This document shows, one piece after another, positions 39,440 to 62,016 of a stretch of 64,000 bases of DNA (position 1 is the first letter of the stretch; each line of letters begins with the position of its first letter). The position numbers were made by a program, and so were the translations under genes. Source of the stretch: a virus. Under the pieces are notes generated by a model. That model had not been told where the DNA came from and searched no databases. It was given only the letters and a program-made list of their open reading frames with translations. The stretch spans positions 192,001 to 256,000 of IMG/VR virus record IMGVR_UViG_3300045988_179014, one strand, 5' to 3'.

Positions 39440-40642
39440 TCAATCCACGTTTTTCAGTTTCAACAATGCTGTCAAAGTCATTTCCGCATCTGCTAAAGCT
39501 CTATGCGCTCCTGTATAGGACTGTCCTGATGCTTCCACCAATGATTTGTTGGTGTTGTCAGGTGTTTCGGGCAGGAAGAATGTACTGACCATGCGAGTGT
39601 CCAATACTTCCAGCCCATTCGCTTGTAATGCATTGAAACCGAAAAGATTGTGCTGCAACTGTCCAATTTCAAATTTGGCATTATGCGCCACCATGACAGA
39701 ATCACTCAACATGGACAACACCTTGGTTTGCTTTTCTGGGTCATTCACGAAAACTTCTTTGTCTTTAATCTCATCCCATGAAATATGATGAACATGCTCA
39801 GCACCAGTACCATGAACTTTGGCGAAGTCTTGAGGAACTCCACTCATGAATGACATGGTTTCAACACGACCATCTGGATAACGTTTGACAATACCTACTT
39901 CAATGATGTTTGAATATGGACCTTTGTCAACATATCCACTCTCTTGAGAAGCGGCAACCTCCAAATCAATTGATACCAAAGGTTTATCTGTTCTCAAAGA
40001 CATATTGGCCCACATATGACGGTATGCCTCAGTGCGGGTCATTCCAGTTGCCATCAAATCATCAACTTGTTTCTTCACGTCTTCAGTTGACATGCCTGAA
40101 TACGAGGAAATCACTTGATTCGCGTCGGCCTCGTTTTCAGATGTGATATCAGGGTGGAAATTGTAAGGACCGTTCTTCTTCTTTTGTTGCCGTTTCCAAT
40201 CCTCAAATTTTGCTTGATTCAATGCTTTCTGGTCATCTCTTCGTTGTTGCAATTGGGCTCGTTCTTCAGAAGACATGTATCTTTCAGCTTCACGTTCTTT
40301 AGCTGTAGCCAAGAAATTCAATTGTTTGGCTTTTTGCACCGTCTGGAACCAACGAACACTGGCCAGAGCTTCTGGATTACCTTCAGCGGTTTTCAGTTCG
40401 TTGGCCAGTTTCCACATATTCCTTTTTGCAGCCCGAGATTTCAGAAACAACTCCTCTATTCGTTCAGCATTTGATGTTGAGGACTTGGACATTGTGTTCA
40501 CTACTTGATTGGACATTCTACGTTCATATGCGTCACGTGCTTCAGCTATAGAGTTGTAGTGGAACTCATCAGAATATGGGCATTGTCGTTTAGCAGAGCA
40601 ACGATTTACAACACCATTTTGAGGGTTTAAATGAAATAACAT
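39440..40642 (-). CDS. HCCH-like N-terminal module fused to a DnaQ/epsilon-like DEDDh 3'-5' exonuclease
   Basis: N-terminus LFHLNPQNGVVNRCSAKRQCPYSDEFHY..EARDAYE. C-terminus VSIDLEVAAS (Exo I), HNAKFEIGQL (Exo II), HRALADAEM (Exo III). Confidence 0.6.
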   Translation of the reverse strand: MLFHLNPQNGVVNRCSAKRQCPYSDEFHYNSIAEARDAYERRMSNQVVNTMSKSSTSNAERIEELFLKSRAAKRNMWKLANELKTAEGNPEALASVRWFQTVQKAKQLNFLATAKEREAERYMSSEERAQLQQRRDDQKALNQAKFEDWKRQQKKKNGPYNFHPDITSENEADANQVISSYSGMSTEDVKKQVDDLMATGMTRTEAYRHMWANMSLRTDKPLVSIDLEVAASQESGYVDKGPYSNIIEVGIVKRYPDGRVETMSFMSGVPQDFAKVHGTGAEHVHHISWDEIKDKEVFVNDPEKQTKVLSMLSDSVMVAHNAKFEIGQLQHNLFGFNALQANGLEVLDTRMVSTFFLPETPDNTNKSLVEASGQSYTGAHRALADAEMTLTALLKLKNVD

Positions 40643-41051
40643 GCCATCCTCCTATTTCAATCTTACATAGTTTGTATCTAACGATTCAACTACTCATGAT
40701 TCTTTCAAGAAGTACAGTTAACCGTGATTCTGACTGATAGTGAAATCGTAGCACGCAAACGAGCAATGTTGACTACAAAATAATATTGCGTTTCCTATTA
40801 TGCCCAAACCATCCTGAAATGACTCCAATGAATGCGTGAATATGCAATTATATTTCGAATTATGGAAAGCACAAACCAAGCTCCTAGAAGTGTTTTGAGC
40901 GTGATTTTGAAGGTATCACGAAGAAGCATTTCACGTAAAACTTCTTGAAAACACGAAAAACGCCCCCGAATAGGCTTGGTAGAATCTGGGCTATTCAAGG
41001 GGCGCTACAGAAAGCGATTTTATGGTTTTCTCATACACTCATTTTATGGTT

Positions 41052-42095
41052 TCATTCCTCCATACCTTGAACATAATCGTAATAAGTCTCTGCGGCTACT
41101 GACAGCTCAGCTTGATAACGATTTTCCAGATTTGATTTGACATCGTACTGTAAAGCTTCATATCCCTTGAATGCTCCAAGAAAAGCTCCGCCAACAGCTG
41201 CTAAACTATCAGAATCACCATTGGTCCACACCAACCGTTGAATCCCTTTGTAGATGCTTCTAGAGCTGTATGCTGCAACAGCAATAATGGCGTTGTACAA
41301 TGTCTCATCCGCTACCCAACCTTCCCCAAAGAAAGAGGTCATGTCGGCTTGTGTGGGAGCATCCAGAAAATCATCCCATTTGAGGCCAAGTTGAGACAGC
41401 CCATCTCTTAGATGCTGAACACCATCTTGAGCATCCTGAACCAAATTACTAGGCATCTTGGCAATTTCGCTCAACACCAACTTGGCATAATGAATGAACT
41501 TTGGCCCAAGAACGTTTTCACTGTCCATATTGAGCAGGTCTCTGGTGAGAAGTGCTGCAAGAGCAGACGCAATCCAACCCACATGACTTCCATGAGTTGT
41601 CTGGGCTTGGATGATAGCAAGGTATACGACTGTTTCGCGGTTATACGGCAATGCTCCAAACCAAGGAGCCCGCATTACTGTTCCACAACCATTGCTATTG
41701 TTGGTTGCTCCCTCCATACCAGTAGATACATTACGAGTATTAAGATATGTTCCCAATGCTCGCATGCATGTCATACCAGGAGCGCGGTTATTCTCAAGGT
41801 CATAGTAGAAATCCACATGATGTGACGCAAAAATCATACGAATCTGGTTTTGCAAGTCCACATTCTGACCTAGTTCTTTCAAATCATCTGATGAATACCG
41901 TTTCATCATGTCTTTGATTGCGGCCAGATTGTATAGACTCATCTGTGTGTCATCAGAAACACGAAGAACATGTGGAGGTTTCACCTTGTTGCGTACAATT
42001 TGTGGATATTGCATGAACTCAGTAACATATCCCCATGCATCACCAAATGCAAACCCATATATCATACCGTCAATTTTGTTCTGGGAAATAACCAT
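41052..42095 (-). CDS. ADP-ribosylglycohydrolase (ARH/DraG/Tri1 family)
   Basis: GMIYGFAFGDAWGY and VSDDTQMS motifs; ~347 aa. Confidence 0.7.
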   Translation of the reverse strand: MVISQNKIDGMIYGFAFGDAWGYVTEFMQYPQIVRNKVKPPHVLRVSDDTQMSLYNLAAIKDMMKRYSSDDLKELGQNVDLQNQIRMIFASHHVDFYYDLENNRAPGMTCMRALGTYLNTRNVSTGMEGATNNSNGCGTVMRAPWFGALPYNRETVVYLAIIQAQTTHGSHVGWIASALAALLTRDLLNMDSENVLGPKFIHYAKLVLSEIAKMPSNLVQDAQDGVQHLRDGLSQLGLKWDDFLDAPTQADMTSFFGEGWVADETLYNAIIAVAAYSSRSIYKGIQRLVWTNGDSDSLAAVGGAFLGAFKGYEALQYDVKSNLENRYQAELSVAAETYYDYVQGMEE

Positions 42096-42226
42096 ATATT
42101 CTCGCTTTCTGTAGACTCCTCATCTGTTCAAATACTAAAACACGATTTTTGAGAGATTGGGTTCTTGTCTCTTGTTGCTGTGTATAGTATTGTCAATTAT
42201 GAGACTTGTACACCATTCATCAATGT

Positions 42227-42406
42227 TCAAGAAACCACTTTACCATCATCATCGAACTGAACCGCATGTTCTACTGGACGGGGAAGGTCTGCATGACGTT
42301 CAGGTCGTAACGCCATAGTCTCCAAATTGGCGTCAGTTGTGTCCTTGCTTCCACTTGTGTTAGGATGTTCCACGTTGAGGATGTTGTCAATCGGATTATT
42401 AGTCAT
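42227..42406 (-). CDS. Small ORF (59 aa) between the ART triplet and the ARH, with strong Shine-Dalgarno
   Basis: Read directly from the DNA: AAAGGAG, 7 nt, then ATG ACT AAT AAT CCG ... TGA. Just below the 60-aa threshold of the ORF track. Confidence 0.35.
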   Translation of the reverse strand: MTNNPIDNILNVEHPNTSGSKDTTDANLETMALRPERHADLPRPVEHAVQFDDDGKVVS

Positions 42407-42465
42407 TGAATACTCCTTTAGTTATTTATTGGCTTTTCAACTTTACCATGTTGTTTAATCTTGTG

Positions 42466-43707: not shown

Positions 43708-43713
43708 GTAACA

Positions 43714-44940: not shown

Positions 44941-44942
44941 GT

Positions 44943-46064: not shown

Positions 46065-46178
46065 ATGTTATATTCCTTGACTATCTGACTCGTCGTCCCC
46101 TATATATCGTTTTATCAGATAACCATAATCATGTCCACTAAAAACAATCAACTTGTCAACAAAACTTCATCAAACGAG

Positions 46179-46811
46179 TCAAATAATACGTTTTGTACTG
46201 TCATTCTTGTCAACAGTGTGCACATCCCCGCCAATGAATCCAATAGTGATGTGAAAATCCTTGGGCGGCAACCCTGCATTTCGTCGCCAAGCATTCATGA
46301 CAGGCGATTTGACCAATATGTACCAAGCTTCTTTTTCCCCATCTCTTACACTGCCAACCCCATCCAATGTGAAAGACATGGAAGTATCAACAGGCAATGA
46401 AACACCAGATTTACGAAGCTGTCTGGTTTCTTTGGGAGTTAACAAAGTCACGTGAAAATAATAACCACCATCGCGTTGTATTTTTGCTGTCTCCATGGCC
46501 TCTGCTGTTTCAGCTCCTACATGTTGCCGCCATGCTTGCAAATGCTCTTGTAAAAGAGTCTCAGAAACCTTGACACCAACATATGAGTTATATTTCAAAC
46601 CTTGTGCCACGTTTTTGAACTCAGTTTGTGGCAATCCAACCCGAACCGACTGTTTCCGTAAACGTTTCAACGGCTCTTGGCTATTGTGGTAGGCTTTTTC
46701 GGCATCTGACAAACTGTTGAAATGTTCACCCTTCTTGCGACAATTCCCTGGTTTGGCTATACATGGTTTAGGCCCGTCATCCGTCATATGGTACATGGTC
46801 CTATTCCTCAC
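46179..46811 (-). CDS. HCCH-like N-terminal module fused to a 2H phosphoesterase (LigT/CPDase-like)
   Basis: N-terminus MYHMTDDGPKPCIAKPGNC...HF. Two H-x-T-x motifs: FHVTL and FHITIG. Confidence 0.6.
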   Translation of the reverse strand: MRNRTMYHMTDDGPKPCIAKPGNCRKKGEHFNSLSDAEKAYHNSQEPLKRLRKQSVRVGLPQTEFKNVAQGLKYNSYVGVKVSETLLQEHLQAWRQHVGAETAEAMETAKIQRDGGYYFHVTLLTPKETRQLRKSGVSLPVDTSMSFTLDGVGSVRDGEKEAWYILVKSPVMNAWRRNAGLPPKDFHITIGFIGGDVHTVDKNDSTKRII

Positions 46812-47966
46812 TCAAATTTTTGTTCTACACACGGGTCCGATGTTTCCGTGTTTAAGAGGCTGTCCACAACGTATACAACAACCTGAATTCCAAACAGTGG
46901 TTACCGCAGGTTCAGGATATGAAGACACTGTGGAAGGGTCCTGTGGCTCAGTGTGTTCAACTGTTGAAACCAATAATCCTTCCCGTTGGAACATTTGTAT
47001 CACACGAGGACGGTCATCAATAGCACCAACTACAGCAAAACCTTCAGCTCGCAGTTTTTTCAACTGTTCTAGCTTGTATTCTGTATCAGTACGATAATCA
47101 TTCAACCGTTTCAGCAACAATTTACTAACCGGGGCATCAACACGTTCCAGAAAATTAATGGTCTCTTGTGCATAGTTATCCGTTCTTCCAGACAATGCAA
47201 CAATGTTTATACCTTCAGCTCGCATTTCACGAATCAGATTCAATACTTGTGTGTTAACTGGAGCATATTCAGCCGCTTTGTGGAACTTGTGAAAATTCTT
47301 CTTCTGCCCAGGAACACCAAAAGCCTCATTCATATCTTTTTGGTTGTGAGCCAATGTCCCATCCAAATCCACCAACATAATAGCATTCCCTATCATTGGA
47401 TAACGTTGAGACATTTCCTCATCAAATTTCGCTATCCGGTCCATGCCATCAGTGTGAAACGGAACCACTGACACTTTTCCAGATGTTTTGGAGACAATGT
47501 ATTCTTTCAAATGCCCCTTGTCATCATAAGCTTTCTGGGCCATAGCATCAATAACATGTTCTGGAACGCAACGCCCACCTTGTTGACCACGAACAATATT
47601 TCGCTGTTTACACACATCAACAGGAACATCAAAATACAACTGTTCAATCTCAGCATTGTAGATTGAGGCCAAATTGTGCAAATGTTCCACCACGTTACGA
47701 TTCAAATTGGTATCATCTGAGATAACATGTTTTCCAGCAGCCAATCCTTGACGAATCAACTCATCCTGCACTGCTGTTACCTGTTCTTCACATTTCTTGC
47801 GAGGCGATTGGTTATGATACTCGCTACCGAACAACGCAGTACGAATGTCATCACGATTCACACGAACAGTGTTTTCAGGGTCAGACGCAACCATTTGTTC
47901 TGCCTGAGTGCTTTTACCCGACCCTGGAAGCCCGTGCGTCATGGTGAAACGCGGATTACCGCTCAT
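46812..47966 (-). CDS. Polynucleotide 5'-kinase/3'-phosphatase (T4 Pnk-like) with C-terminal zinc-ribbon tail
   Basis: GLPGSGKST, VNRDDIR, ISDDTNLN (kinase); MLVDLDGTLA, ALSGR, AIDDRPRVIQMFQREG (HAD phosphatase). Collinear with T4 Pnk motifs. C-terminal CCIRCGQP...CRTK. Confidence 0.85.
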   Translation of the reverse strand: MSGNPRFTMTHGLPGSGKSTQAEQMVASDPENTVRVNRDDIRTALFGSEYHNQSPRKKCEEQVTAVQDELIRQGLAAGKHVISDDTNLNRNVVEHLHNLASIYNAEIEQLYFDVPVDVCKQRNIVRGQQGGRCVPEHVIDAMAQKAYDDKGHLKEYIVSKTSGKVSVVPFHTDGMDRIAKFDEEMSQRYPMIGNAIMLVDLDGTLAHNQKDMNEAFGVPGQKKNFHKFHKAAEYAPVNTQVLNLIREMRAEGINIVALSGRTDNYAQETINFLERVDAPVSKLLLKRLNDYRTDTEYKLEQLKKLRAEGFAVVGAIDDRPRVIQMFQREGLLVSTVEHTEPQDPSTVSSYPEPAVTTVWNSGCCIRCGQPLKHGNIGPVCRTKI

Positions 47967-48029: not shown

Positions 48030-48563
48030 TCAAGATTTAACAATCATTGGACGCCCATCAATACCTGTCCTAATACCTTGATGCTCATAATATTTGGCCC
48101 GTAACATTTCTGAAACAATCCGAGTGTTACGTACAGTAGCTTTTACCAGTTCTTTACTCTTGGTTCGCAGGAAAATCTTGCTTCGTTTCAACATTTTTCG
48201 ACGATATGCTTTCAAAGCCGCTATACGGTCACGTCTACGTTGCTGACGCACAATATTGCGAACATTGGGTGTGTAACGTTTTATGGCACGATAATTCATA
48301 ACAAAACGCACAGCAGCATTGTCCTCACCCAATTTCTCCATTTTTCTGTAATAACGTTGGATAGGTGATTGACCAATGTTACGTGCTACAACTTTTCCAA
48401 CCAGTTCGCCATATTCTTGGGTCATTTTGGCTTCATAAACCGCTTGGGCTTCTTGTTGATTGTCAAAATGCTTTCCACCTTGGGCAGCATATGGACATGT
48501 TCCTGCTACCACTTTGCACAGACGTGGTCCATCATTGGTTATATGATAAAGCCTCATACTCAT
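48030..48563 (-). CDS. HCCH-like N-terminal module fused to a basic Arg/Lys-rich C-terminus (possible nucleic-acid binding)
   Basis: N-terminus LYHITNDGPRLCKVVAGTCPYAAQGGKHF..EAQAVYE; C-terminus highly basic. Confidence 0.5.
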   Translation of the reverse strand: MSMRLYHITNDGPRLCKVVAGTCPYAAQGGKHFDNQQEAQAVYEAKMTQEYGELVGKVVARNIGQSPIQRYYRKMEKLGEDNAAVRFVMNYRAIKRYTPNVRNIVRQQRRRDRIAALKAYRRKMLKRSKIFLRTKSKELVKATVRNTRIVSEMLRAKYYEHQGIRTGIDGRPMIVKS

Positions 48564-50320: not shown

Positions 50321-51325
50321 TCATCGAGGTTTTACTATCAATGCCTCATCACTGAGATGTATGCTTGTTTCATATGACAATGGCTGATTGGAACTTATGA
50401 TTACTTCATCCCAGAAACGGTCACTTCCAGTACATCCACCATATGGTTCTCCCACATTGACAATAGTGACATGTGGGTAATCATCTTTTACCATTTGAAC
50501 TAATTTTGCATCAATGGTATTATCATAGGGCGCCCACACAATAGCCAAGTGTGTAATTGAGTCCCCGTATTTTCTCAATGCATCCTGAGCATCCATCTGT
50601 TCCAACCCTTGAGACAACTGCCAGGAATTATCATCCGTTCCAATGGTTTTAACCCCTTCATCTCGTAAGGCCTTCACCAGATATCCTTTACCTGCCATGG
50701 GGTCCAACAAAGTGCCATTTCCCACCACTCTGGCCAAAGATTTCGCAAACTTTCGTGTAACTTTGGCATAGTATCCTGTCTCACACAACAATGAATGAGC
50801 CATCGTACTTACTGCATAATTTTCCTGCATTTGTTTCGGCAGTTCATTTGGGATTTCACCGTTGATGATTTTTACGCAATATTCTTCAGATTCAACATCT
50901 AGAGACTCCCCCAATGATTCCAATGTTGATTTGATGTCATTCAAATACTCCAGTTTGTCTGAAGCTGGCGTTATGATGACTGGTTCAATCCAATCATTAT
51001 TTTTCTGGCGGGACATGGTTTTACAAGAAGTTCCTCCACATTGAGATTTCATACGTTTCTCAAATGCGACTTGTGCCGCTTGGAGTGTTTGGTAATGAGA
51101 ATCATCCGTATTTCGTGTTATGGGACAATTACCAGGTTGCGCATAACACCTTTTGGGACCAATGGCTGTAAGGTGATAAATGGCAGTGGTCATGGTTTCT
51201 CCTATTACTGTTAAGCATGCAGCAATGTCACACATAATACGAATTACAAACAACATATAGTTTCTAAGGCGATGCATAGTTGTATCCAATACTGGTACAA
51301 CATGCTGAGGTTTCACAACATCCAT
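50321..51325 (-). CDS. HCCH-like module fused to a Rossmann-fold SAM-dependent methyltransferase (possible DNA/RNA MTase)
   Basis: YHLTAIGPKRCYAQPGNCP...HY motif. The real start is probably the internal Met of MTTAIYH. Motif I LLDPMAGKG, acidic TIGTDD, WAPY (degenerate (D/N)PPY?). Confidence 0.45.
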   Translation of the reverse strand: MDVVKPQHVVPVLDTTMHRLRNYMLFVIRIMCDIAACLTVIGETMTTAIYHLTAIGPKRCYAQPGNCPITRNTDDSHYQTLQAAQVAFEKRMKSQCGGTSCKTMSRQKNNDWIEPVIITPASDKLEYLNDIKSTLESLGESLDVESEEYCVKIINGEIPNELPKQMQENYAVSTMAHSLLCETGYYAKVTRKFAKSLARVVGNGTLLDPMAGKGYLVKALRDEGVKTIGTDDNSWQLSQGLEQMDAQDALRKYGDSITHLAIVWAPYDNTIDAKLVQMVKDDYPHVTIVNVGEPYGGCTGSDRFWDEVIISSNQPLSYETSIHLSDEALIVKPR

Positions 51326-51476: not shown

Positions 51477-51821
51477 TCAGCAGCTTCCGCCACCAGCTGA
51501 ATTGCAATACTTTCCGTCAAATGCTGATTCTGGGATAGCGTTTCTTTCAAAAAAATACAACTCACGATAAAAATTCTCTCGTTCTGCATTTGTGAACAGT
51601 GTTCGTGGTAGGGAATGGTGCTCGTTCCGGTATCGATGACTCATTACAAAACTTCGTAATGCTGTTTTCAAGCTTTTAGCAACGCGGTCAGAAGATTTCT
51701 TGTTGCTAAAAGCTTTACTGACATCTGAACGAGCATGACGATATATTCGGTCCAAATAACGCCATTGATTGAAGCGTATGGCATTGTAATAAGATTTGTA
51801 CGGATTCCTGATAGTCACCAA
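51477..51821 (-). CDS. Hypothetical basic protein, 114 aa
   Basis: ORF track. Confidence 0.3.
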   Translation of the reverse strand: MVTIRNPYKSYYNAIRFNQWRYLDRIYRHARSDVSKAFSNKKSSDRVAKSLKTALRSFVMSHRYRNEHHSLPRTLFTNAERENFYRELYFFERNAIPESAFDGKYCNSAGGGSC

Positions 51822-51904
51822 ACCTGAAGCATGAAGGCCAACTTCGGAGGGAATGCCTTTAAGTAATTAATGAGCTAGGTTGAATATTGAGGTAATACGA
51901 ACAT

Positions 51905-52219
51905 CTACACCCTCGTTACTGAACACATGGTTAAAATCACGGTTTTGGATGTCGCTGTGATAATCAAAACATCTCGGTCACTGTCAGAATGATGCAGTCC
52001 GTAAACGCTCGAACCCAACAATCCATACCCCACAATATTGCCTTCCATTACCGGCAAAAGGCTTTTGTGGTGTTTCTGATAGTATCTTCTGCTGAGTTCC
52101 AACACCCATTCTGCTTCTGTCATTGTTGGTATTTTCAGAATCGGTTTCATAGGAGCATAAACTGTATTAGATTGATTGGGAATATCGTGCATAAAGGCCT
52201 CATAAATGATAAACAGCAA
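51905..52219 (-). CDS. Minimal nucleotidyltransferase (Pol-beta superfamily, MNT-like)
   Basis: GLLGSSVYGLHHSDSDRDVLI = GS..x..DxD nucleotidyltransferase motif. Confidence 0.5.
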   Translation of the reverse strand: MLFIIYEAFMHDIPNQSNTVYAPMKPILKIPTMTEAEWVLELSRRYYQKHHKSLLPVMEGNIVGYGLLGSSVYGLHHSDSDRDVLIITATSKTVILTMCSVTRV

Positions 52220-52872: not shown

Positions 52873-54063
52873 TTGGAGGCCCATCCTATGTATCACATCA
52901 ACGATAAAGACGAATCGAAACGCTGTTATGCCAAAAGCATGGAAAGGTGTCGATTCTACCGTGCTGATGACCCTCGACACTATGAAACCGCAGAAGAAGC
53001 CCAACAAGCAGCAGAGGAAAGGATAAGAAAGAAAGCGTTGAAAGAAGGGCATGGAACCACCAATTCCTTGAGTAAACGCACCATGAATGAACATGATGAC
53101 AAAGACATTAATTTTGCTGGAATGGAACGTGATGAACGTACTCGCCAAATGCAGGAAACTCTTGACCGTGAGGTTGAACAACTAATCAAAGATGGACGAT
53201 TGGCAAAATTCTTGGATGCGATGTCCAAAAATGGGGTACAGAGATGGAGCGCCAACAACATTCTGTTAGCAGCTCTGCAATTGCGCTCATATCGGAAACG
53301 AAACGGATTACCAGTTACCAACAATCTATTTGACACCATAAATGAACTTGATGCTTGTGGAGCCAAACAATGGAATGAACGAGGACGTAAAGTCATCTCT
53401 GGAAAAGGTTCAGCTCTTTACATTCTGGCACCATTACAACGCAAATATCCTGTTAAAGACGCTCAAGGTAATCAATTAGTGGATGAAAACGGCCAACCAG
53501 TCATGCAACGTTACACATATGGTTGGCGTTCTGTAGCTGTTTTTGATGTCAGTCAAACAGAAGGTGAACCAGTTCCTCAGAATCCACTACAAATGAAACC
53601 CGTCACTACAAAAATCAAATCGCAATATGTGGATGACATGAAGAATGTGGTTCAATCATATGGATACAAAGTCGTTCATGCGGAAACAGCGTCAGACCCA
53701 GAAAGATTGAAAGGAACTTTGGGCGCGACCAATCCCACCACAAAAGAAGTGACAATAGACCCTCGTTTATCAGAAGCGCAACAAGCGGCTGTTCTAGCAC
53801 ACGAATTAGGCCATATTGCAATGGGGCATTTGGATGAGGATATGCAGGAATATGTAAAACATAGAGGAATTAAGGAAACTGAAGCTGAGGCGCTTGGTTA
53901 CATGTTGCTGCAAAGAGCTGGACTTGGACCAAAGGAAGGCGCCGCATTCTCAGCTCCTTATGTTGCAGGTTGGTCTAAAGGTGATATGAGTATGGTGCGT
54001 ACAGCTTTGAATAAAGTCACTAGTCGTTTCGGTAAACTGATGGATATATTGAAATGGGATTGA
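52873..54063 (+). CDS. HCCH-like module fused to an ArdC-like antirestriction protein (ssDNA-binding N-domain + HExxH metallopeptidase)
   Basis: N-terminus MYHINDKDESKRCYAKSMERCRFY..HYETAEEAQ; C-terminal AVLAHELGHIAMGH zinc-metallopeptidase motif, as in ArdC. Confidence 0.55.
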   Translation: MEAHPMYHINDKDESKRCYAKSMERCRFYRADDPRHYETAEEAQQAAEERIRKKALKEGHGTTNSLSKRTMNEHDDKDINFAGMERDERTRQMQETLDREVEQLIKDGRLAKFLDAMSKNGVQRWSANNILLAALQLRSYRKRNGLPVTNNLFDTINELDACGAKQWNERGRKVISGKGSALYILAPLQRKYPVKDAQGNQLVDENGQPVMQRYTYGWRSVAVFDVSQTEGEPVPQNPLQMKPVTTKIKSQYVDDMKNVVQSYGYKVVHAETASDPERLKGTLGATNPTTKEVTIDPRLSEAQQAAVLAHELGHIAMGHLDEDMQEYVKHRGIKETEAEALGYMLLQRAGLGPKEGAAFSAPYVAGWSKGDMSMVRTALNKVTSRFGKLMDILKWD

Positions 54064-54277: not shown

Positions 54278-54316
54278 ATGTCCCTAGTTGAGTGATACCT
54301 CATATCTTGGGAGAAA

Positions 54317-55119: not shown

Positions 55120-57084
55120 CTACCGCCTAACCATCGTATTGGATACATCATGGATTTCTTCATGGTCAACTGGGGTAGGGACGAACACCCCATTACGATG
55201 CAAAGAACTCTGAAAATTATACAACGCTTTCATCATCATTACCGTATCAGCTTCAGCAGCGTGTGCATCCACATATGGTACTCCATTGTCTTCTGAAAAC
55301 GACTGCAATGAGTTGTCAATAGATGTAACCATAAGATGAGATGCAATTTGTTTAGTATCCAAAATCAACAAACTACCATCATCCAACGCTTCAGCAAACC
55401 CTGGAAGATTCACTGCCAGAAACTCTTTTTCAAATGTGGCATTATGAGCTACAAGCACTGCACCATGAAGAGCGTCCCAAATAGCTGTCACATTGGCTTC
55501 ATCCTCAAATTCCGGCTTGTTTGCCACCATATCAGGAGTAATACGATGCAAAGACTCCAGTCCCACACCTACTCCATCAATCACGTCAGCACTTATCCCG
55601 TGAAGAGTAGACAGCAATGTTTCCACATTACCATCTGGAGACAAACGGACAATGGCGGTTTCCAAAATACGCCCTTTAGCAGGAGACGCTGCACTCGTTT
55701 CCAAATCAATACCAACTATAGGCTGGGTGCGGATTGACGGATTGTGCGCAGCGTACACAGATGTCAAAACTGATTGAATCTGTGTGGGGGAATAACTAGT
55801 GCCGTCTTTCTTGACTTTGGTGAAAGCATCGCGTACAACTTGATAACAATGCTCCACCGTATCCCCAGAGTATGCTGCTACTTTGTACGCCCAGTCTTTC
55901 ATATTGACACTCTTTGGGAACCCTTTATGAATCTTCTTTGCAAAACGATTCACCCCAGCCGCCAATTCCTCTTTGATGGTCTCTACTTCATGCCAGAATT
56001 CGGCTGCTGCGGTTTTCATGTGTTCCCACTCTTCAACAGCTCGTGGGTCATCCATGTTGAAGTGGTACTCGCGATAGTCATAATCATCCAAAACAGCTAC
56101 CAAAGTAACCGTTTTCAAACCAGCCAATCCCGCATACCAAATGGCTTGCTGTCGATACCCAACTGGCATTCCTGCAAAGCCATCTTCAGTGTCTCCCCAT
56201 TTAGAGCTATTGTGAACGCCTGTTTTGATTTCTACGATACCAACGGGAGTATTGGTATCATCAAGCTCTAAACCGTCAAAATTTGCATGACAGTGGGAAA
56301 ACTCGCCAGTCCCGGCCCATGAGGTTTTACAGAAAGCGATGCGTTTCCCAGAGTTCTTCATGTACATATGTCGGATAGCTTCTTCCCAAGCATTTCCCCG
56401 CCCTACAGCTGTTCGTTTGTCAAGACGGGAGTCATCATCAACAGGAAGAATGGACAATCCAACTTTCTGAAGAAGCAATGAATGATAATCTCGTGCTCCA
56501 TATTCTGGGTTGGATTTCAGGATTTTGTGGATATCTGAGCCACCAATGCCATTGTTACGCGCATGATGCCACTCAGCGCTACCAGAGACATAATCCCCTA
56601 CTGCTACCAAAGACCCAATGGTATCTTTGGTGTATGCCAGGAATGTCCCCTCCTCACGTTGTTGCTGTTCACGAATACGCGAAAAAGCTTCAGCCGCCAT
56701 AGCATTGAACGCTTTGTACTCATCAATATTTGTGTTCAGCAGCGATAACCGCTCAAACACTGAACGGTAGGGTAGCGTTGCTTCACGAATAGCAACATAT
56801 GACTTTCTTTTAGTTCCATCCTCATATGGAAGATACCCTTTTGCTCGTTTGATGTTAATGAGCAGATGTCGAAGTACTTTGTAAAAATTGCCCCTAACAT
56901 CAAGGGCGGCCTGGAATTCTGGAGTGTTACTACGTTGGAACACCCACCTCATGAGTACATCTGGGTCCTGTTTTTCCAGTAATTGGTCCAGTTCTGAAGC
57001 CGTACCCTCAGAATTGAACTCTGCTATTGACACTGGCCAATCCAAAACCTCAGAAAGGCTGTACTCAATGTCGTTGTCTGTCAT
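55120..57084 (-). CDS. Fusion protein: YqaJ/lambda-Exo-like PD-(D/E)xK exonuclease domain + C-terminal DnaQ-like DEDDh 3'-5' exonuclease
   Basis: GSAEWHHARNNGIGGSDIHKIL (YqaJ signature); IVGIDLETSA, HNATFEKEFL, HAAEADTVM (epsilon-like Exo I/II/III). Confidence 0.55.
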   Translation of the reverse strand: MTDNDIEYSLSEVLDWPVSIAEFNSEGTASELDQLLEKQDPDVLMRWVFQRSNTPEFQAALDVRGNFYKVLRHLLINIKRAKGYLPYEDGTKRKSYVAIREATLPYRSVFERLSLLNTNIDEYKAFNAMAAEAFSRIREQQQREEGTFLAYTKDTIGSLVAVGDYVSGSAEWHHARNNGIGGSDIHKILKSNPEYGARDYHSLLLQKVGLSILPVDDDSRLDKRTAVGRGNAWEEAIRHMYMKNSGKRIAFCKTSWAGTGEFSHCHANFDGLELDDTNTPVGIVEIKTGVHNSSKWGDTEDGFAGMPVGYRQQAIWYAGLAGLKTVTLVAVLDDYDYREYHFNMDDPRAVEEWEHMKTAAAEFWHEVETIKEELAAGVNRFAKKIHKGFPKSVNMKDWAYKVAAYSGDTVEHCYQVVRDAFTKVKKDGTSYSPTQIQSVLTSVYAAHNPSIRTQPIVGIDLETSAASPAKGRILETAIVRLSPDGNVETLLSTLHGISADVIDGVGVGLESLHRITPDMVANKPEFEDEANVTAIWDALHGAVLVAHNATFEKEFLAVNLPGFAEALDDGSLLILDTKQIASHLMVTSIDNSLQSFSEDNGVPYVDAHAAEADTVMMMKALYNFQSSLHRNGVFVPTPVDHEEIHDVSNTMVRR

Positions 57085-57227
57085 GGAACCTCCAAATCTA
57101 CCTCATACCATTACACCATTCAAACACTGTGGTGTCAAATTGACTGATTCAACTTTGAATCATATGGAACCATGATTTGGTATTCTGAAATCAACATGAA
57201 TACAATACAAGGAATAATGGCAATACG

Positions 57228-57710: not shown

Positions 57711-57814
57711 TGCCATTACGAGGTGAACGATTTCCACATCTATACTAATATGCAGTAGTTTTCAACATACTAAAAACTTATTGGAGGCAAAACAACTACA
57801 ATGTTGGAAACACT

Positions 57815-58792
57815 TCAATTTGAGTATTTGTTGATAATGTTTTGTAACCTGCTGGTAGTGTTGCACAATTGTTTCCATATCACAGCTTTACCACGTTCTG
57901 AAATTGGCAGATTCAGCTTCATCATGGAATGTTTGAAAACCTCTACTACTGGAAGATACTTGATAGCTTGTTTTTTCGTTTTGTGTCTTCGTTCAGGAAT
58001 GTCATTGTTGTAAAGCCCTGTTGCGTTGTCAATGAAATCGCTTACTTTTACTAAAAATACTCCAGGATGATTTTCAATTGCTTTGGCCACGTGGTCGTGA
58101 TAACGCTTGTTCTTGACTTCTGTTGACATGCGTGATTTGTCCTGGTCTGCAATGTAATCATTTGTCACTGCATCCACCAAATGAAGAACACGAGGACCAT
58201 AAGCGTCATTGATGTGTTGACGTAATGTGTTTCGTGCTGTCAATTCATCACAATCAGTTACCCCGTGAAATTTGTCCATGAAAACTCTTGCCCCATCTTC
58301 AATTGTGTCATGAAGAACAGCAGCAACAATTACATCTTGGTCCTGTGCACCCAAACGTATCAAACGTACCGCATTACGTAGAGGATGTTCAATATAAGGC
58401 GTGGTCGCAAAGTTACCTCGATTGCCTCTGATTTGATGTGCATGCAGGATAGTAGCCAAATCTACTGACGAATCGACAATTTCAGCATTCAAGCCCAACA
58501 ATGCTGCTTCATGCCGTAATGTTTGAGCCAGTTGTGCCGCATCCAGTTTTTTCAAAGGTGTTTCACGTAACACTTGCGCTGAACGAGCACATAATTCTTC
58601 TGCACTTACACTAATTGAGGAATGGGGATGGTTTCGGGGCTTTTTTAATGTTGGAATCATTGAGTGGGCCATCATGGATTCATGGTTTTGTTTTGCAGCA
58701 TCAGCAGAATCACCATGAACCAGAGGACAATGACCTTCGCGAGCATCACAGCGAACAGATTTTCCCAATGTCTCGCTGAAATGGTACCTCAT
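57815..58792 (-). CDS. HCCH-like module fused to a RelA/SpoT-type HD domain ((p)ppGpp hydrolase-like small alarmone hydrolase)
   Basis: ILHAHQIRGNRGNFATTPYIEHPLRNAVRLI...VAAVLHDTIEDG...VLHLVDAVTND...LVKVSDFIDN follows SpoT hydrolase motifs (HPL..A, LHDxxEDT, GVTK, KLADRLHN). Confidence 0.65.
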   Translation of the reverse strand: MRYHFSETLGKSVRCDAREGHCPLVHGDSADAAKQNHESMMAHSMIPTLKKPRNHPHSSISVSAEELCARSAQVLRETPLKKLDAAQLAQTLRHEAALLGLNAEIVDSSVDLATILHAHQIRGNRGNFATTPYIEHPLRNAVRLIRLGAQDQDVIVAAVLHDTIEDGARVFMDKFHGVTDCDELTARNTLRQHINDAYGPRVLHLVDAVTNDYIADQDKSRMSTEVKNKRYHDHVAKAIENHPGVFLVKVSDFIDNATGLYNNDIPERRHKTKKQAIKYLPVVEVFKHSMMKLNLPISERGKAVIWKQLCNTTSRLQNIINKYSN

Positions 58793-58875
58793 GATACATC
58801 CCTTCCATTATCCCCATTGTTAGCTTTTGAATGGTTCTCTAACAGAAGATTATCATACTAAGACTATTTAAAAGT

Positions 58876-59352
58876 TCACCGAATGTTTTTAAGAGAGAAT
58901 ACACACCCATTCTCTTCACGTTTACCAACTAAAATCCCTACATTGGATGCATCCCCAGTACGCCATGTTGCTGCTTGCACAGACCCTTGAAAATCTCGCG
59001 TACAAATTGGAGCCTTTCCTTCCAAAAGCTTCAGATTCGTTACATTTGTTGCAGTTTCTATTGTGGCAATAATATTCTCGTGATTATTGGTTCTGTTGTA
59101 GTGTGTGGCCAGTATGTAACATAATATTGTAGCCATCAAAACTGGAACCACTACAAGAGCTTTGGCAAGCGAATCAGTTTTCTGGGTTGCTGAAAAACTC
59201 AAATTGAAATAATGCGCGGTTATTACCATGCCAACAACAAGCACTATGATTGTTAATCCAAACGGCCATAATGACAGATGGTTAAAAGGTACTGTGGTCA
59301 TCGTGGCATCACCATGATAGATAGATTCTTCACACTTGGTTGTCTCACACAA
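58876..59352 (-). CDS. Membrane protein, 158 aa (two TM)
   Basis: LTIIVLVVGMVITA and LVVVPVLMATILCYIL helices. Confidence 0.4.
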   Translation of the reverse strand: MCETTKCEESIYHGDATMTTVPFNHLSLWPFGLTIIVLVVGMVITAHYFNLSFSATQKTDSLAKALVVVPVLMATILCYILATHYNRTNNHENIIATIETATNVTNLKLLEGKAPICTRDFQGSVQAATWRTGDASNVGILVGKREENGCVFSLKNIR

Positions 59353-59516
59353 CGTCCATACTCAGTCAAATATGTGTTAAACAATGTAGTCAGGAAATCA
59401 ACTGCCTGTTCTGGTCTCATTCTTTGTCGTCCCTTTAGAATAACAACGACTCGGACCTGCTCCTTGGCTTTCAAAAATTTCTGGGCCTGTGCCATTTTTC
59501 TATGTAAATCGTTCAA
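59298..59516 (-). CDS. Translation initiation factor IF3 C-terminal-domain-like protein (72 aa)
   Basis: VRVVVILKGRQRMRPEQAVDFL...SIMVMPR parallels IF3-C ([20 protein letters not shown]...MIMVLAP). Overlaps the 3' end of the upstream gene by ~55 nt. Confidence 0.4.
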   Translation of the reverse strand: MNDLHRKMAQAQKFLKAKEQVRVVVILKGRQRMRPEQAVDFLTTLFNTYLTEYGRCVRQPSVKNLSIMVMPR

Positions 59517-59705
59517 CCCTATTTGAAGCGTGCATTGGATTGTTTTAATGATTTTCTCCTCTACTTGTGCTACTATAATATTGTTTCTACAGTTGTAATG
59601 TTATCATTATGCACATCTTGACAGAAACATGTCCCATACATGAATCATTCACAATAATAATTCAATACCATCTTTTATCTAGCAGTTTTCTTCTCATGTC
59701 TTACT

Positions 59706-60500: not shown

Positions 60501-60749
60501 ATTTTCTCATGAATGAAACACTGTACTCTGCTATCATATTAGATTACCACAACAGTATCATTCAGCTTAGTTGTCGAGTTACTACCAAAACCAATATTTT
60601 CGCACTCATATCAGTATTCAAACCATAAATCAACAATGAACACACTTTAAAGAGATAGCGCCTAATATTATATTATGTGTTATGGAATGTTTGTTTGCAT
60701 TGGATTCAAAATTCACAGGTTGGTTGACAACAAATGATAGGATGATGAC

Positions 60750-61397
60750 ATGACTGGATTCAACGAGATATACATTTCTGTGGACATTGAAGCAACGGGG
60801 CCGATTCCTGGTCTTTACTCCATGTCATCTATTGGTGCCTTTACAGCCGGCGCAAGAACCTGTGATGGAACATTTGTACATTTCGACCATACAGAGACCA
60901 ATAATGTTTTCTATGCTGAGTTACAGCCAATCTCTGAGCATTATATTCCTGATGCTATAAATGTGGGTATTTTGGACGGATTTGACAATAGTAGACCAGA
61001 TATGGACGGTTCACGACATTTTCAGTGGATGAAAGAACATGGAGACGACCCAGCTGATGTTATGTCTGGTTTTGTCACATGGGTGATTGAACAAGAAAAA
61101 CACTACAAAGCTCCATCTGTTTTCATGGCTTATCCAGCATCATTTGACTGGACTTTCGTGTATTGGTACATGATTCGATTTGGAGTCGAATCGCCTTTCG
61201 GTTTTTCCCGAGTACTGGATTTGAAAACATTGTTCGCAGCCAAGTCGCACAAACCAATCAGAAAGAGTATAAAACGGTACATGCCAAAAAGTTTGTTCCC
61301 AAAGCTGCTGCATACTCACAGAGCTGACGATGACGCCATTGAGCAAGGTGTGTTAGGCATCAATCTGCTTCAGTGGGACGGGAAACAGCCATCATGA
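60750..61397 (+). CDS. DEDD-family 3'-5' exonuclease (Rv2179c/KapD-like)
   Basis: ISVDIEATGPIPG (Exo I); acidic/His residues near the C-terminus (HRADDDA). Confidence 0.45.
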   Translation: MTGFNEIYISVDIEATGPIPGLYSMSSIGAFTAGARTCDGTFVHFDHTETNNVFYAELQPISEHYIPDAINVGILDGFDNSRPDMDGSRHFQWMKEHGDDPADVMSGFVTWVIEQEKHYKAPSVFMAYPASFDWTFVYWYMIRFGVESPFGFSRVLDLKTLFAAKSHKPIRKSIKRYMPKSLFPKLLHTHRADDDAIEQGVLGINLLQWDGKQPS

Positions 61398-61452
61398 CCA
61401 TAAACGACGACAAAAGCCAATAACCTTGAATGTATCAGTGTGTAATGTTTCA

Positions 61453-62016
61453 TTATGGATACACAATGACAGAGGTGACAAAGCTCCAAGGAACATACTG
61501 GGTTAGAATCACATCATTCAAGGTTTTGTAAAACTTCAATCCTGCTGCTTGCATTGCATTACCATCAATGCTCAGTACAACAGGTATGCTCTTATGTTGA
61601 CGGGCAGCAGATAATGCTATTTTCTCATCTGATGACAAATGCACAAACAGTCGTGAACCAGGAACAATACCCCATTCACGGATAGTGCCTACTTTTGATG
61701 CTGTGGTGCCATGATAAATAGTTCCAGGATTGTCAACTGAATCTAATTCTATGGTTATTGGAATAGAATGTCCTTCAGTAGCCCAAACACGACCATTAAC
61801 AACAGCATAATGACCACTGCTATCTTCATCAACAATTTTATGAATCATGCTTTCAGAAGTGTTCAATGCTTTGGCTAAATCTGTAACTTCAACTGAACCA
61901 TCCTGGTGCATATCAACTTGATACTGTTCAGGAGCATGACATAGGGCCTGATTCATTTGTTGGGACAATTCAGTCAATTCCATGTCTCTCCTCAATTCCT
62001 CGATATCATTGTTCAA
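61453..62016 (-). CDS. kptA: RNA 2'-phosphotransferase Tpt1/KptA
   Basis: IYHGTTASKVGTIREWGIVPGSRLFVHLSSDEKIALSAARQHKSIPVVLSIDGNAMQAAGLKFYKTLNDVILT is collinear with E. coli KptA (LYHGT ... HYVHLSADE..A..VG.RHG.PVIL.V ... GV.LT). Confidence 0.8.
   Translation of the reverse strand: MNNDIEELRRDMELTELSQQMNQALCHAPEQYQVDMHQDGSVEVTDLAKALNTSESMIHKIVDEDSSGHYAVVNGRVWATEGHSIPITIELDSVDNPGTIYHGTTASKVGTIREWGIVPGSRLFVHLSSDEKIALSAARQHKSIPVVLSIDGNAMQAAGLKFYKTLNDVILTQYVPWSFVTSVIVYP

Follow-up and report, generated by a model that had tools for sequence, protein, structure and literature searches.

A candidate host-conditioning effector island with a shared N-terminal leader on a ~337-kb conjugative, plasmid-like element

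Gene content of the 39.4-62.0 kb interval

The window analysed here, a stretch of 64,000 nucleotides, carries between positions 39,440 and 62,016 genes for NAD- and ADP-ribose-linked enzymes, RNA-repair enzymes, exonucleases, an alarmone hydrolase, and an ArdC-family antirestriction protein (Table 1). Sequence searches against Pfam, NCBIfam, PADLOC, and PDB confirmed these gene families, and their catalytic motifs are readable, including the P-loop and DxDxT motifs of Pnkp, the paired HxT motifs of the 2H esterase, HD..ED of the alarmone hydrolase, R/SxS/ExE of the ADP-ribosyltransferases (ARTs), and HExxH of ArdC. These assignments agree in the main with a sequence-only reading that had described the region as a dedicated counter-defence arsenal.

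Table 1. Features of the window; "outside" marks genes beyond the 39.4-62.0 kb interval.
Feature	Coordinates	Strand	Evidence
Conjugation genes: TadE-like, NikA-like, membrane GmrSD_C nuclease, TcpC, TraG/TrwB-type coupling protein (T4CP)	214..11027	-	
Oligoribonuclease, bona fide (outside)	13871-14470		PDB Orn E 5e-18
HCCH leader + YqaJ/RecE-like nuclease (outside)	14906..16135	-	leader E 2e-17; YqaJ E 2e-4; phrog_434 RecE-like E 2e-9
HCCH leader + further domain (outside)	23068..24321	-	leader E 1e-10; no Pfam/PHROGs match
HCCH leader + further domain (outside)	31966..33111	+	leader E 1e-10; no Pfam/PHROGs match
NAD module: NUDIX-NrtR, isochorismatase-type nicotinamidase, HAD_SAK_2, NAPRT (adjacent, outside)	34703..38507	-	
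HCCH leader + DEDDh 3'-5' exonuclease	39440..40642	-	RNase_T E 1.3e-12, residues 223-392; PADLOC DEDDh; leader E 2e-17
ARH1-like ADP-ribosyl(arginine) hydrolase (ARH)	41052..42095	-	ADP_ribosyl_GH E 7e-37
Three tandem paralogous ARTs	42466-43707, 43714-44940, 44943-46064	-	
HCCH leader + 2H phosphoesterase, 2H-SAK family	46179..46811	-	PF22547 E 1e-19; leader HMM E 1e-11
Pnkp, T4 type (polynucleotide kinase-phosphatase)	46812..47966	-	AAA_33 E 2e-28; HAD_PNKP E 2e-17
HCCH leader + highly basic tail	48030..48563	-	leader HMM E 7e-18
HCCH leader + further domain	50321..51325 (likely start near 51190)	-	leader HMM E 1e-17; phrog_19090, unknown function
Nucleotidyltransferase-like remnant, weak	51477..52219	-	NTP_transf_2 E 0.002, below cutoff
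HCCH leader + ArdC-family antirestriction protein (ssDNA-binding N domain + HExxH metallopeptidase)	52873..54063	+	Peptidase_M78 E 1e-8
YqaJ-type + DEDDh exonuclease fusion	55120..57084	-	YqaJ E 7e-14; RNase_T E 1e-7; PADLOC PDC-S48, DEDDh
HCCH leader + SpoT/Mesh1-type HD (p)ppGpp hydrolase	57815..58792	-	HD_4 E 1e-7; leader HMM E 9e-8
Cap18-like DEDDh exonuclease	60750..61397	+	PDB 7T2S E 7e-19; PADLOC PDLC00753 "Effector/Exonuclease" E 9e-33
Tpt1/KptA, RNA 2'-phosphotransferase	61453..62016	-	PTS_2-RNA E 1e-24, 88 bits vs cutoff 26

The three ARTs and the ARH that the sequence-only reading had named are both present, with the ARH immediately downstream of the ARTs and its closest solved relatives being ARH1 ADP-ribosylarginine hydrolases (E 1e-7 in the PDB sequence search). 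Successive ART genes are separated by gaps of 2-6 nt, and the second and third products share 78% and 46% identity with the first. ART genes 1 and 3 match the Pfam families ADPrib_exo_Tox and ART, the match for gene 2 comes from precomputed annotation, and the alignment of the three shows motifs R (ILYRG), S-x-S (YQSAS), and E-x-E (EREV). The NAD salvage genes that had been assigned to the same arsenal were found, although they lie at 34.7-38.5 kb and thus outside the interval; within this module NUDIX and NrtR_WHD were matched, and Isochorismatase, HAD_SAK_2, and NAPRTase_N were taken from precomputed Pfam annotation.

Pnkp, the 2H esterase, and the ART triplet are packed in an operon-like manner, joined by gaps of 0-6 nt, with the 2H gene adjoining the upstream Pnkp gene at a 0-nt gap by ORF coordinates. 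The T4-like Pnkp, which carries a P-loop (GLPGSGKST), a DLDGT motif, and a Cys-rich C-terminal tail, and the predicted Tpt1/KptA were each recovered as expected. The 2H esterase, with its HVT and HIT motifs, also proved to be correctly assigned to family, but the cleavage of CBASS signals proposed for it is disfavoured: as the gene abuts Pnkp and its product belongs to the RNA-repair family 2H-SAK, processing of RNA ends or of Appr>p is favoured instead. A repair logic linking 2H, KptA, and NAD, as well as a conflict role of ARTs, has been set out previously (PMC9503650). An RNA ligase to partner them was recognised neither in the window ORFs scanned nor in the flanking genes with precomputed Pfam annotation.

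Both the ArdC-like protein and the SpoT-type hydrolase were likewise confirmed. In tblastn searches the ArdC-family gene matched "ArdC-like" genes of actinobacterial plasmids at 28-33% identity, and its homologues bear the PF08401 ArdcN domain and are named ArdC. Among the families of the island, only ArdC is experimentally established as anti-defence. The HD hydrolase matches TIGR00691 (E 4e-12) over hydrolase positions 4-135 and, in the PDB, Rel, Mesh1, and HDDC3, and contains an LHDTIED motif. Multiple DEDD exonucleases had also been claimed, and three DEDDh genes are present, one of which is a homologue of the CBASS-associated exonuclease Cap18, PDB entry 7T2S being Cap18 of E. coli (PMC12345164). 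No CD-NTase was recognised near this gene, and PADLOC returned for the island only generic DEDDh matches and the Cap18-like match. The oligoribonuclease of the earlier claim was mislocated; the true one is encoded at 13.9 kb of the window, outside the interval.

The remaining genes are less readily named. The supposed MNT-like nucleotidyltransferase gave only a weak match, and its two parts lie in different reading frames (51477-51821 and 51905-52219, by frame arithmetic on ORF coordinates), and a DUF559 endonuclease could not be confirmed, the gene at 29039-29680 matching only DUF4379 in Pfam. The leader-bearing protein with the highly basic tail contains no other known domain in Pfam, NCBIfam, or PHROGs. 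The leader protein matching phrog_19090 has no Pfam or PDB match, and its LDPMAGKG motif hints at a Rossmann-fold or methyltransferase-like domain.

A shared N-terminal HCCH leader

The shared leader described from sequence is real: a local HMM detects exactly nine copies of this ~50-aa N-terminal module in the window (domain E 9e-8 to 7e-18), six of them within the interval, a clustering far beyond chance. This zinc-finger-like His-Cys-Cys-His module combines a beta-hairpin with a Cys knuckle and a helix, and no model covers it in Pfam or PHROGs, nor in NCBIfam for the three proteins tested. In metagenomes the leader occurs in at least 4,790 cluster representatives at E<=1e-3. It lies within the first 12 residues in 179 of 186 leader-bearing proteins; the H, C, and C residues are invariant and the second H is kept in more than 90% of sequences. 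Ten cluster representatives of ArdC homologues, 44-53% identical plus one at 98%, retain the leader, and a Herbiconiux homologue does not have it. At the start of each island ART stand a Cys-x4-6-Cys-Pro-Ser-His/Tyr motif and, after it, an arginine-rich helix, and P0111, a related ART encoded by another element, carries the canonical HCCH leader.

Fusion partners of the leader elsewhere include ART, ART-PolyVal, polyvalent-protein domains, LPD18, and Rnl1 ligase, together with zeta/AAA_33 kinases, NUDIX, M78, and NTase domains. On an unrelated 828-kb contig, ten leader genes within 20 kb lie beside an Rnl1 ligase, an NMN transporter, and a NadR-like kinase, and the association of the leader with RNA repair and NAD is thus repeated. 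We infer that the leader serves as a common zinc-binding adaptor or address domain, by which different enzymes would be directed to a single partner, for example a nucleic acid, a host hub, or the transfer machinery. The module ties many of the island genes into one functional set.

The element carrying the island

The element is a ~337-kb conjugative, plasmid-like, extrachromosomal element from human oral metagenomes. It was recovered in two independent metagenome assemblies (337,400 bp and 337,015 bp), at least one of which is human oral, and a 98%-identical ArdC is located on a further contig of 347 kb. Near relatives were absent from 50,697 phage records and 72,556 plasmid records. The T4-like phage framing of the sequence-only reading is wrong, as a coupling protein, TcpC, and NikA-like and TadE-like proteins are encoded, and no phage structural gene (capsid, portal, terminase, or tail families) was recognised in the ~84 kb examined of the 337 kb. 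A T4SS-type Phage_lysozyme2 hydrolase is encoded just beyond the window edge, and no oriT or relaxase was identified. Replication and nucleotide-metabolism genes occupy 11-31 kb of the window, and the element itself encodes GyrB-like, DnaG, ThyX, dNMP kinase, and NrdH proteins. The transfer gene nearest to the island is ~28 kb from its start, with the replication genes in between.

A proposed counter-defence role and its alternatives

The island repertoire of ArdC, ARTs, 2H, KptA, Pnkp, alarmone hydrolase, and NAD salvage overlaps the conflict genes of phages and conjugative elements, and anti-defence islands have been described on the latter (PMC11541004). In those leading-region islands the anti-defence genes lie uniformly on the T-strand (PMC11541004), whereas here the ArdC-like and Cap18-like genes are on the strand opposite to the rest, and a search for Frpo-like or shared intergenic elements found none. 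We lean, by a modest margin over even chances, towards an accessory effector island with a host-conditioning role and the leader as shared adaptor. The counter-defence region first proposed thus gains from the family calls, the overlap in repertoire, and the shared leader; it loses its phage setting, and its role, though coherent and reasonable, is one that we infer.

The NAD and RNA-repair genes, with the alarmone hydrolase and the exonucleases, could also be plain self-maintenance for a giant replicon. On this account, which we judge unlikely though the strongest of the alternatives, the island would be stress-tolerance cargo that keeps the element and its host viable under oral stresses rather than a counter to immunity. 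The neighbouring replication and nucleotide-metabolism genes are consistent with it, similar sets (gyrase, exonucleases, NrdH) are read as stress tolerance in the Inocle paper (PMC12340149), and Orn, NAPRT, and nicotinamidase belong to common housekeeping families. ArdC, the Cap18-like nuclease, and three rapidly diverging tandem ARTs are not housekeeping, however, and the domains to which the leader is fused elsewhere (zeta toxin-like kinases, ART-PolyVal, LPD18) are of the conflict type; the DNA pattern for the leader, with a match in only 2 of 185,579 species genomes, further argues against a core cellular role.

That the genes instead serve defence or addiction seems improbable to us. The position of the ARH, resembling that of an immunity gene, would fit a toxin-antitoxin or abortive-infection pair with the ARTs, the Cap18-like and DEDDh proteins match PADLOC models and could be effectors against phages or rival plasmids, and large plasmids commonly bear toxin-antitoxin genes (PMC11541004). 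Yet the PADLOC DEDDh matches are generic fold matches, beside these genes no CD-NTase, sensor, or further component that would complete a defence system was recognised, and Pnkp, 2H, Tpt1, the HD hydrolase, and ArdC mend or undo damage rather than inflict it. Least credible, and in our view very doubtful, is a set of jumbo-phage early genes or internal-protein-type effectors, which the leader would target to the capsid as the CTS of T4 does for Alt and the internal proteins. Pnkp, ARTs, 2H, and KptA form a repertoire characteristic of T4-like and jumbo phages (PMC9503650), the leader's best structural matches in BFVD, though weak, fall on five proteins from a single metagenomic contig labelled "Siphoviridae sp. 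ctHip2", the only three tblastn matches of the 2H domain in the phage collection are 630-640-kb "uncultured phage" records, and the inspection for virion genes spans only the part of the element given above. That part nevertheless yielded no such gene and the conjugation gene set is full and of Gram-positive type; megablast against phage records gave no match to the element, the consensus and one window leader gave no credible tblastn match in the 50,697 phage records, and no PHROG covers the leader.

For the element, the most likely role of the island would be to condition the host cell. The three arginine-type ARTs would modify host proteins, a modification that the ARH1-like hydrolase could reverse, Tpt1 also consumes NAD, and the NAPRT, nicotinamidase, NrtR-NUDIX, and HAD_SAK_2 salvage block is located directly upstream. 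In RNA-end healing, the opening of 2',3'-cyclic phosphates or Appr>p would fall to the 2H esterase, the repair of 5'-OH and 3'-P ends to Pnkp, and the removal of the 2'-phosphate to Tpt1; the alarmone hydrolase, the DNA/RNA exonucleases, one of them Cap18-like, and the ArdC antirestriction protein are further modules. Restriction would thereby be blunted, RNA cleavage by anticodon- or HEPN-type nucleases undone, NAD+ kept available, toxic alarmones removed, and host proteins reversibly ADP-ribosylated. Taken together, the counter-defence reading is best supported at its core, an NAD/ADP-ribose and RNA-repair theme, the leader is possibly a new targeting module, and the island, judged from its gene content, probably helps the element to survive host immunity.

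Gene content of the island and its element

Six-frame ORFs of the window were scanned against Pfam, NCBIfam, PADLOC, PHROGs and PDB sequences, and almost all of the families that a sequence-only reading had named in window 39440-62016, which it described as a dense anti-defence and host-takeover arsenal, were recovered in that interval. A few of its assignments had to be revised: the genuine oligoribonuclease lies outside the interval, within which the DEDD genes are Cap18-like or of the generic RNase_T-fold; the supposed DUF559 endonuclease matched only DUF4379; the MNT-like nucleotidyltransferase was a weak match to a frame-split remnant; and the NAD salvage genes, although present, are also located outside the interval.

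Features of the window discussed in the text
Feature	Window coordinates	Strand	Supporting matches and remarks
GmrSD_C/HNH-type nuclease domain protein	2332-3150	-	membrane-anchored
Oligoribonuclease (Orn)	13871-14470		PDB Orn, E 5e-18
GyrB-like protein	17667-20165	-	full GyrB domains
GHKL-ATPase protein	24876-27008	-	832 aa, separate gene
tRNA, anticodon CUA	34577-34649	-	amber suppressor; ARAGORN label tRNA-Pyl; Rfam tRNA 54 bits
NAD salvage block	34.7-38.5 kb		NAPRT, isochorismatase-type nicotinamidase, NUDIX-NrtR, HAD_SAK_2
DivIVA/Wag31-like coiled-coil protein	38849-39352	-	NCBIfam NF050102, E 1e-11, well below cutoff
DEDDh exonuclease	39440-40642		RNase_T-fold
ADP-ribosylglycohydrolase (ARH)	41052-42095		E 7e-37; closest solved relatives ARH1 ADP-ribosylarginine hydrolases
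Three tandem ART paralogues	42466-46064	-	Pfam ADPrib_exo_Tox and ART; spacers 2-6 nt
2H-SAK phosphoesterase	46179-46811		no gap to Pnkp
Pnkp, T4-type	46812-47966	-	AAA_33 and HAD_PNKP; P-loop and DxDxT motifs
Small basic protein	48030-48563		HCCH leader
Rossmann-like protein	50321-51325		HCCH leader
ArdC-family protein	52873-54063	+	M78-type peptidase, HELGH motif
YqaJ and DEDDh fusion	55120-57084		ordinary two-domain enzyme
SpoT/Mesh1-type HD hydrolase	57815-58792		HD_4, 31.9 bits (cutoff 27.2); LHDTIED motif
IF3_C-matching ORF	59298-59516	-	72 aa
Cap18-like DEDDh exonuclease	60750-61397	+	PDB 7T2S, E 7e-19; PADLOC PDLC00753, E 9e-33
Tpt1/KptA	61453-62016		PTS_2-RNA, E 1e-24; 88 bits (Pfam gathering cutoff 26)

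The best-supported core of this effector gene cluster, hereafter the island, is a predicted NAD+/ADP-ribose and RNA-end-healing network. The domains and motifs of Pnkp are those of the bifunctional 5'-kinase/3'-phosphatase of T4-type RNA repair, and a query with this protein found no relative in GTDB species genomes. At its C-terminus is a Cys-rich tail (…SGCCIRCGQPLKHGNIGPVCRTKI) reminiscent of a small zinc knuckle, a feature that to our knowledge T4 Pnkp lacks. The 2H protein was confirmed as a member of its family, but the role against CBASS signals suggested for it is disfavoured because the gene is linked to Pnkp with zero gap and belongs to the RNA-repair 2H-SAK family; its single-sequence AF2 model was poor (pLDDT 40), with a leader region folded similarly to the model of the leader described below. 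No RNA ligase family (Rnl1, Rnl2 or RtcB) was recognised among the scanned window ORFs or the annotated flank genes (~84 kb); in other elements, leader proteins have Rnl1 as a neighbour or fusion partner. Alignment of the three ARTs revealed that the R, S-x-S and E-x-E catalytic motifs (ILYRG, YQSAS and EREV) are intact in all three, suggesting arginine-specific enzymes of the R-S-E type (C3/VIP2/Alt-like).

The 2H enzyme, which abuts Pnkp and falls in the RNA-repair 'SAK' clade, and Tpt1/KptA would match the 2H to KptA pathway of large phages, in which opening of a 2',3'-cyclic phosphate precedes NAD+-dependent removal of the 2'-phosphate, and 2H acts on the resulting Appr>p by-product (PMC9503650). 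The predicted arginine-type ARTs are followed by an ARH1-like eraser, and the salvage block upstream would replenish NAD+. We infer, with somewhat more confidence than doubt, that this core forms a counter-defence or host-conditioning island together with ArdC, the alarmone hydrolase and the exonucleases.

Among these additional genes, ArdC represents the sole experimentally proven anti-defence family in the island. Its direct Pfam match is to the M78-type peptidase only, with no direct match to ArdcN; homologues at E 1e-30 to 1e-8 carry PF08401 (ArdcN) with or without PF06114 and are named 'antirestriction protein ArdC', and tblastn with the protein matched annotated ArdC-like genes on actinobacterial plasmids. 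Membership of the ArdC family (ArdC-N plus a C-terminal HExxH metallopeptidase) holds transitively. The HD protein matched TIGR00691 over positions 4-135 only, with Rel and Mesh1 as its PDB matches, and its HD..ED motif and lack of a synthetase domain fit a small alarmone hydrolase, as a predicted activity. The Cap18-like protein is a full-length homologue of E. coli Cap18 (PDB 7T2S; PMC12345164) but is encoded by a stand-alone gene between a coiled-coil membrane protein and Tpt1, with no CD-NTase family or other CBASS gene recognised nearby; the element may have co-opted it. A precomputed Pfam match to IF3_C, the C-terminal domain of translation initiation factor 3, was also present in a short ORF of the island.

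By exact-protein look-ups the window belongs to two contigs, one of 337,400 bp (k119_28504 of ENA ERZ27262748) and one of 337,015 bp (k127_102411 of ERZ988510) from a 'human oral metagenome' assembly of PRJEB6997, and an ArdC 98% identical to the window copy lies on a 347-kb contig. The analysis covered ~84 kb of this 337-kb element, whose GC content is ~41%. In its first 11 kb the window has genes for a TadE protein, a NikA-like accessory protein of the relaxosome, a membrane nuclease of GmrSD_C type, TcpC and, at 6977-9391, a coupling protein of TraG/TrwB type, and immediately outside the window are genes for a T4SS-type lysozyme and a protein of 1,227 aa; the stretch between this conjugation block and the island includes genes for DnaG, NrdH, Orn, ThyX, a prim-pol-like protein, a GyrB-like protein and a dNMP kinase. 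Neither an oriT nor a relaxase was identified in the window, and megablast searches for near-identical DNA found no match to the interval in 50,697 phage or 72,556 plasmid records. No gene of a PLSDB plasmid exceeds 28% identity to the coupling protein, and its relatives and those of ArdC hint weakly at Actinomycetota-type plasmids. At the edge of the island, the DivIVA/Wag31-like protein is a similarly weak hint of an actinobacterial-type host.

Several other genes of the element were recorded. The membrane-anchored GmrSD_C/HNH-type protein inside the conjugation block may be an entry or exclusion nuclease, and no GyrA-like partner for the GyrB-like protein was recognised in the window. The CUA-anticodon tRNA has the NAD block on one side and leader genes on the other; of the three stop codons, TAG is used least in the window, closing 5 of the 59 ORFs of at least 100 aa, and none of these five extends by readthrough for more than 22 codons. 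Roughly 6-10 kb past the 64-kb end of the window, the flank of the same element (L018) carries an adenylosuccinate-synthetase-family gene (PurA/PurZ-like; L018 16844-17944) and an R2K ATP-grasp gene (L018 19870-20648). A PurZ-type identity, if true, would imply modified-base (2-aminoadenine) DNA.

The HCCH leader

The shared N-terminal His-Cys-Cys-His module noted in the sequence-only reading was borne out by a leader HMM, which detected it at the N-terminus of nine window proteins with the ~50-aa pattern [YF]-H-x(6-10)-C-x-A-x2-G-x-C-P-x(4-9)-H-[YF]-x-[ST]-x2-E-A-x2-A-Y-E. Six of these proteins are encoded inside the interval: the DEDDh exonuclease, the 2H protein, the small basic protein, the putative Rossmann-like protein, ArdC and the HD hydrolase. 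The leader is retained in ten representative ArdC homologues (44-53% identity, plus the variant at 98%) and is missing from the classical ArdC homologues retrieved alongside them. At the very start of all three ARTs stands M-C-R-x(2-4)-R-R-C-P-S-H/Y-x-D-P-V-A-I-A-A-R-N-A-R-R-R, in which a Cys-Cys-His/Tyr motif precedes an arginine-rich helix similar to the arginine-rich motifs that bind RNA. This ART motif was not detected by the leader HMM, and no in-frame extension upstream of the ARTs could supply the leader's first His. The motif may have arisen from the leader by truncation or be a separate targeting peptide. A relative of the window ARTs from another element (P0111) carries the canonical leader.

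Among 1.84 billion cluster representatives, a profile search that used no index identified 4,790 leader proteins at E<=1e-3 and 180 at E<=1e-10. The leader lies within the first 12 residues in 179 of 186 leader-bearing proteins, 19 of which carry two or three tandem copies; the first H and both C residues are invariant, and the second H is conserved in more than 90% of sequences. The top 149 leader-bearing representatives matched 17 Pfam families, mostly in one protein each, and fusion partners include Zeta_toxin/AAA_33 kinases, ADPrib_exo_Tox, ART-PolyVal, LPD18, T4 Rnl1 ligase, NUDIX, M78 and NTP_transf_2. Most of the partner families have known links with biological conflict systems. The genomic surroundings of leader genes vary from 26% to 64% GC, and hardly any of their genes could be annotated.

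No Pfam model covers the leader, no NCBIfam match was obtained for the three leader proteins scanned, and PHROGs gave no match. In tblastn searches, the consensus leader and one window leader had no credible match in phages, and the consensus also found nothing in plasmids. The fold of the leader was modelled with a pLDDT of 80, and a BFVD search with this model gave weak matches only. The top five of the six matches are uncharacterised proteins of one metagenomic contig, 'Siphoviridae sp. ctHip2' (22-35% identity over 48-63 aligned columns, probabilities 0.80-1.00), and some leader-rich elements may therefore sit catalogued as viruses.

Among 185,579 GTDB species genomes, a degenerate leader DNA pattern that covers ~31% of family members matched two: Nesterenkonia alba DSM 19423, the only cultured isolate with a match, and one Clostridiales MAG. 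N. alba has three leader genes of 339-456 aa (NZ_ATXP01000020 and NZ_ATXP01000018; loci L008 and L014), which, like their neighbours, had no Pfam match at all. The MAG, 'Clostridiales bacterium AS08sgBPME_396' (L009-L017; DUQJ01 contigs, 29-34% GC), has at least 14 leader genes on six contigs, and its bin probably holds a leader-rich giant element. On an 828,236-bp contig of 56% GC (L003; JGI 3300062451, Ga0540622_0000002), ten leader genes occur within 20 kb (3.4-18.9 kb of the locus), none of their products having a Pfam-annotated C-terminal domain, and adjoin genes for a T4 Rnl1-type RNA ligase, an NMN transporter and a NadR-like AAA_28 protein. This unrelated contig repeats the association of RNA-repair and NAD genes.

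Taken together, the strict N-terminal position, the diversity of the cargo and the many copies per element suggest that the leader is a shared address or adaptor domain. We propose tentatively, as an idea rather unlikely to hold in full, that it is an address domain not described before and widespread at the N-termini of proteins of giant mobile elements, where it would mark stand-alone effector enzymes for a common fate. We are equally hesitant about its putative recognition by the transfer (T4SS) or packaging machinery, through which the enzymes would enter a new host with the DNA. If true, such delivery would be a split-gene counterpart of polyvalent proteins, with the window island as the best-annotated tagged effector set. 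The HCCH module is the part of the system that could be new in kind.

Comparison with known systems and alternative readings

Bacteriophage T4 uses the Alt, ModA and ModB ARTs in host takeover, and Pnkp and Rnl1 in RNA repair against PrrC. The island shares with this set its predicted arginine-type ARTs, the kinase and HAD phosphatase architecture of Pnkp and the logic of repairing anticodon-nuclease damage. In contrast to T4, it resides on a conjugative plasmid-like element, has no recognised RNA ligase, adds 2H, Tpt1, ARH and NAD salvage, and encodes ARTs with no detectable similarity to solved structures. The KptA-2H and viral NAD+-ADPr network (PMC9503650) and the SAK domains are similarly represented by 2H-SAK, HAD_SAK_2, cREC, KptA, NUDIX, ART and ARH within ~30 kb, although here as single-domain genes, several with the leader, on a plasmid-like giant element and not in a phage or cellular operon.

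Leading-region islands (Samuel et al. 2024, PMC11541004) likewise cluster accessory genes, including an antirestriction protein, on conjugative elements, as which the present one is marked by its TraG/TrwB-type T4CP, TcpC, NikA-like and TadE proteins; a mix of nucleases, a possible methyltransferase-like gene and a possible toxin/antidote pair are further likenesses. Leading-region islands adjoin oriT on the side that is transferred first; at least 28 kb separate the window island from the transfer genes, the nearest being ~28 kb away, and while leading-region anti-defence genes are uniformly in T-strand orientation (PMC11541004), the ArdC-like and Cap18-like genes are on the plus strand and the rest of the island on the minus strand. 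NAD/ADP-ribose and RNA-repair enzymes dominate here, without Acr, Psi, SSB or KlcA, and a shared N-terminal module on many genes is not reported there (PMC11541004). Repeat, hairpin and promoter scans, run without an Frpo model, found no shared promoters, Frpo-like hairpins or repeated leader DNA, the ART paralogues being the only sizeable repeats. Polyvalent proteins, for which a conflict role early in entry has been proposed (Iyer et al. 2017, PMC5512222), have an overlapping repertoire of ART, ArdC/M78 peptidase, nucleases and kinases, and elsewhere the leader occurs on one ART-PolyVal protein and one LPD18 protein. There, 2-15 domains are joined in one giant polypeptide, whereas here separate genes, with or without the common leader, mostly encode one recognised effector domain each, Pnkp and YqaJ-DEDDh being ordinary two-domain enzymes.

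The element itself resembles Inocles of oral Streptococcus (PMC12340149): both come from the human mouth, measure hundreds of kb, encode VirD4-type transfer proteins, gyrase, exonuclease and NrdH, and are nearly missing from the genomes of isolates. Inocles have a GC content of 24-32% (PMC12340149), on which basis Inocle identity was rejected; the T4CP and ArdC relatives of the present element are weakly actinomycetotal, and neither the leader nor the island is described for Inocles (PMC12340149). As habitat, size class and gene style are Inocle-like but GC differs, we treat it as a distinct giant conjugative, plasmid-like element. In function the island resembles conjugative-plasmid anti-defence islands, the polyvalent repertoire and the NAD-ADPr and RNA-repair toolkits of T4 and jumbo phages, and lacks defining features of each.

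Three other readings were weighed against a counter-defence or host-conditioning role. Against that role stand ArdC as the one family of proven anti-defence function, the failure to recognise an RNA ligase in ~84 kb and a layout unlike that of leading regions. The genes might instead be self-maintenance or stress cargo of a giant replicon; we consider this improbable but the most credible of the three. We give less credence to defence or toxin-antitoxin cargo, in which ART and ARH would act as a toxin-antitoxin pair or the Cap18-like gene as an effector. A phage origin was rejected as the primary reading: the ~84 kb examined yielded no recognisable phage structural family, and PHROGs has no match to the leader. 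Descent from a jumbo phage is kept alive, as a very improbable explanation, only because 253 kb of the element was unseen and because the best, weak BFVD matches of the leader all come from the one contig labelled as a siphovirus.

Implications for giant oral elements

If the counter-defence or host-conditioning reading is right, the giant plasmid-like elements often met in the human mouth yet absent from culture collections are equipped with a host-manipulation and counter-immunity toolkit of their own, centred on NAD/ADP-ribose chemistry and RNA repair that have so far been studied mainly in large phages. The leader would then provide a sequence handle on at least 4,790 protein clusters, mostly with C-terminal domains of no known family, that could be mined for new anti-defence or host-modifying enzymes. 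As the one cultured strain found with leader genes, N. alba DSM 19423 offers an experimental entry point, and the leader may point to a targeting or delivery signal that is new for conjugation of the Gram-positive type.
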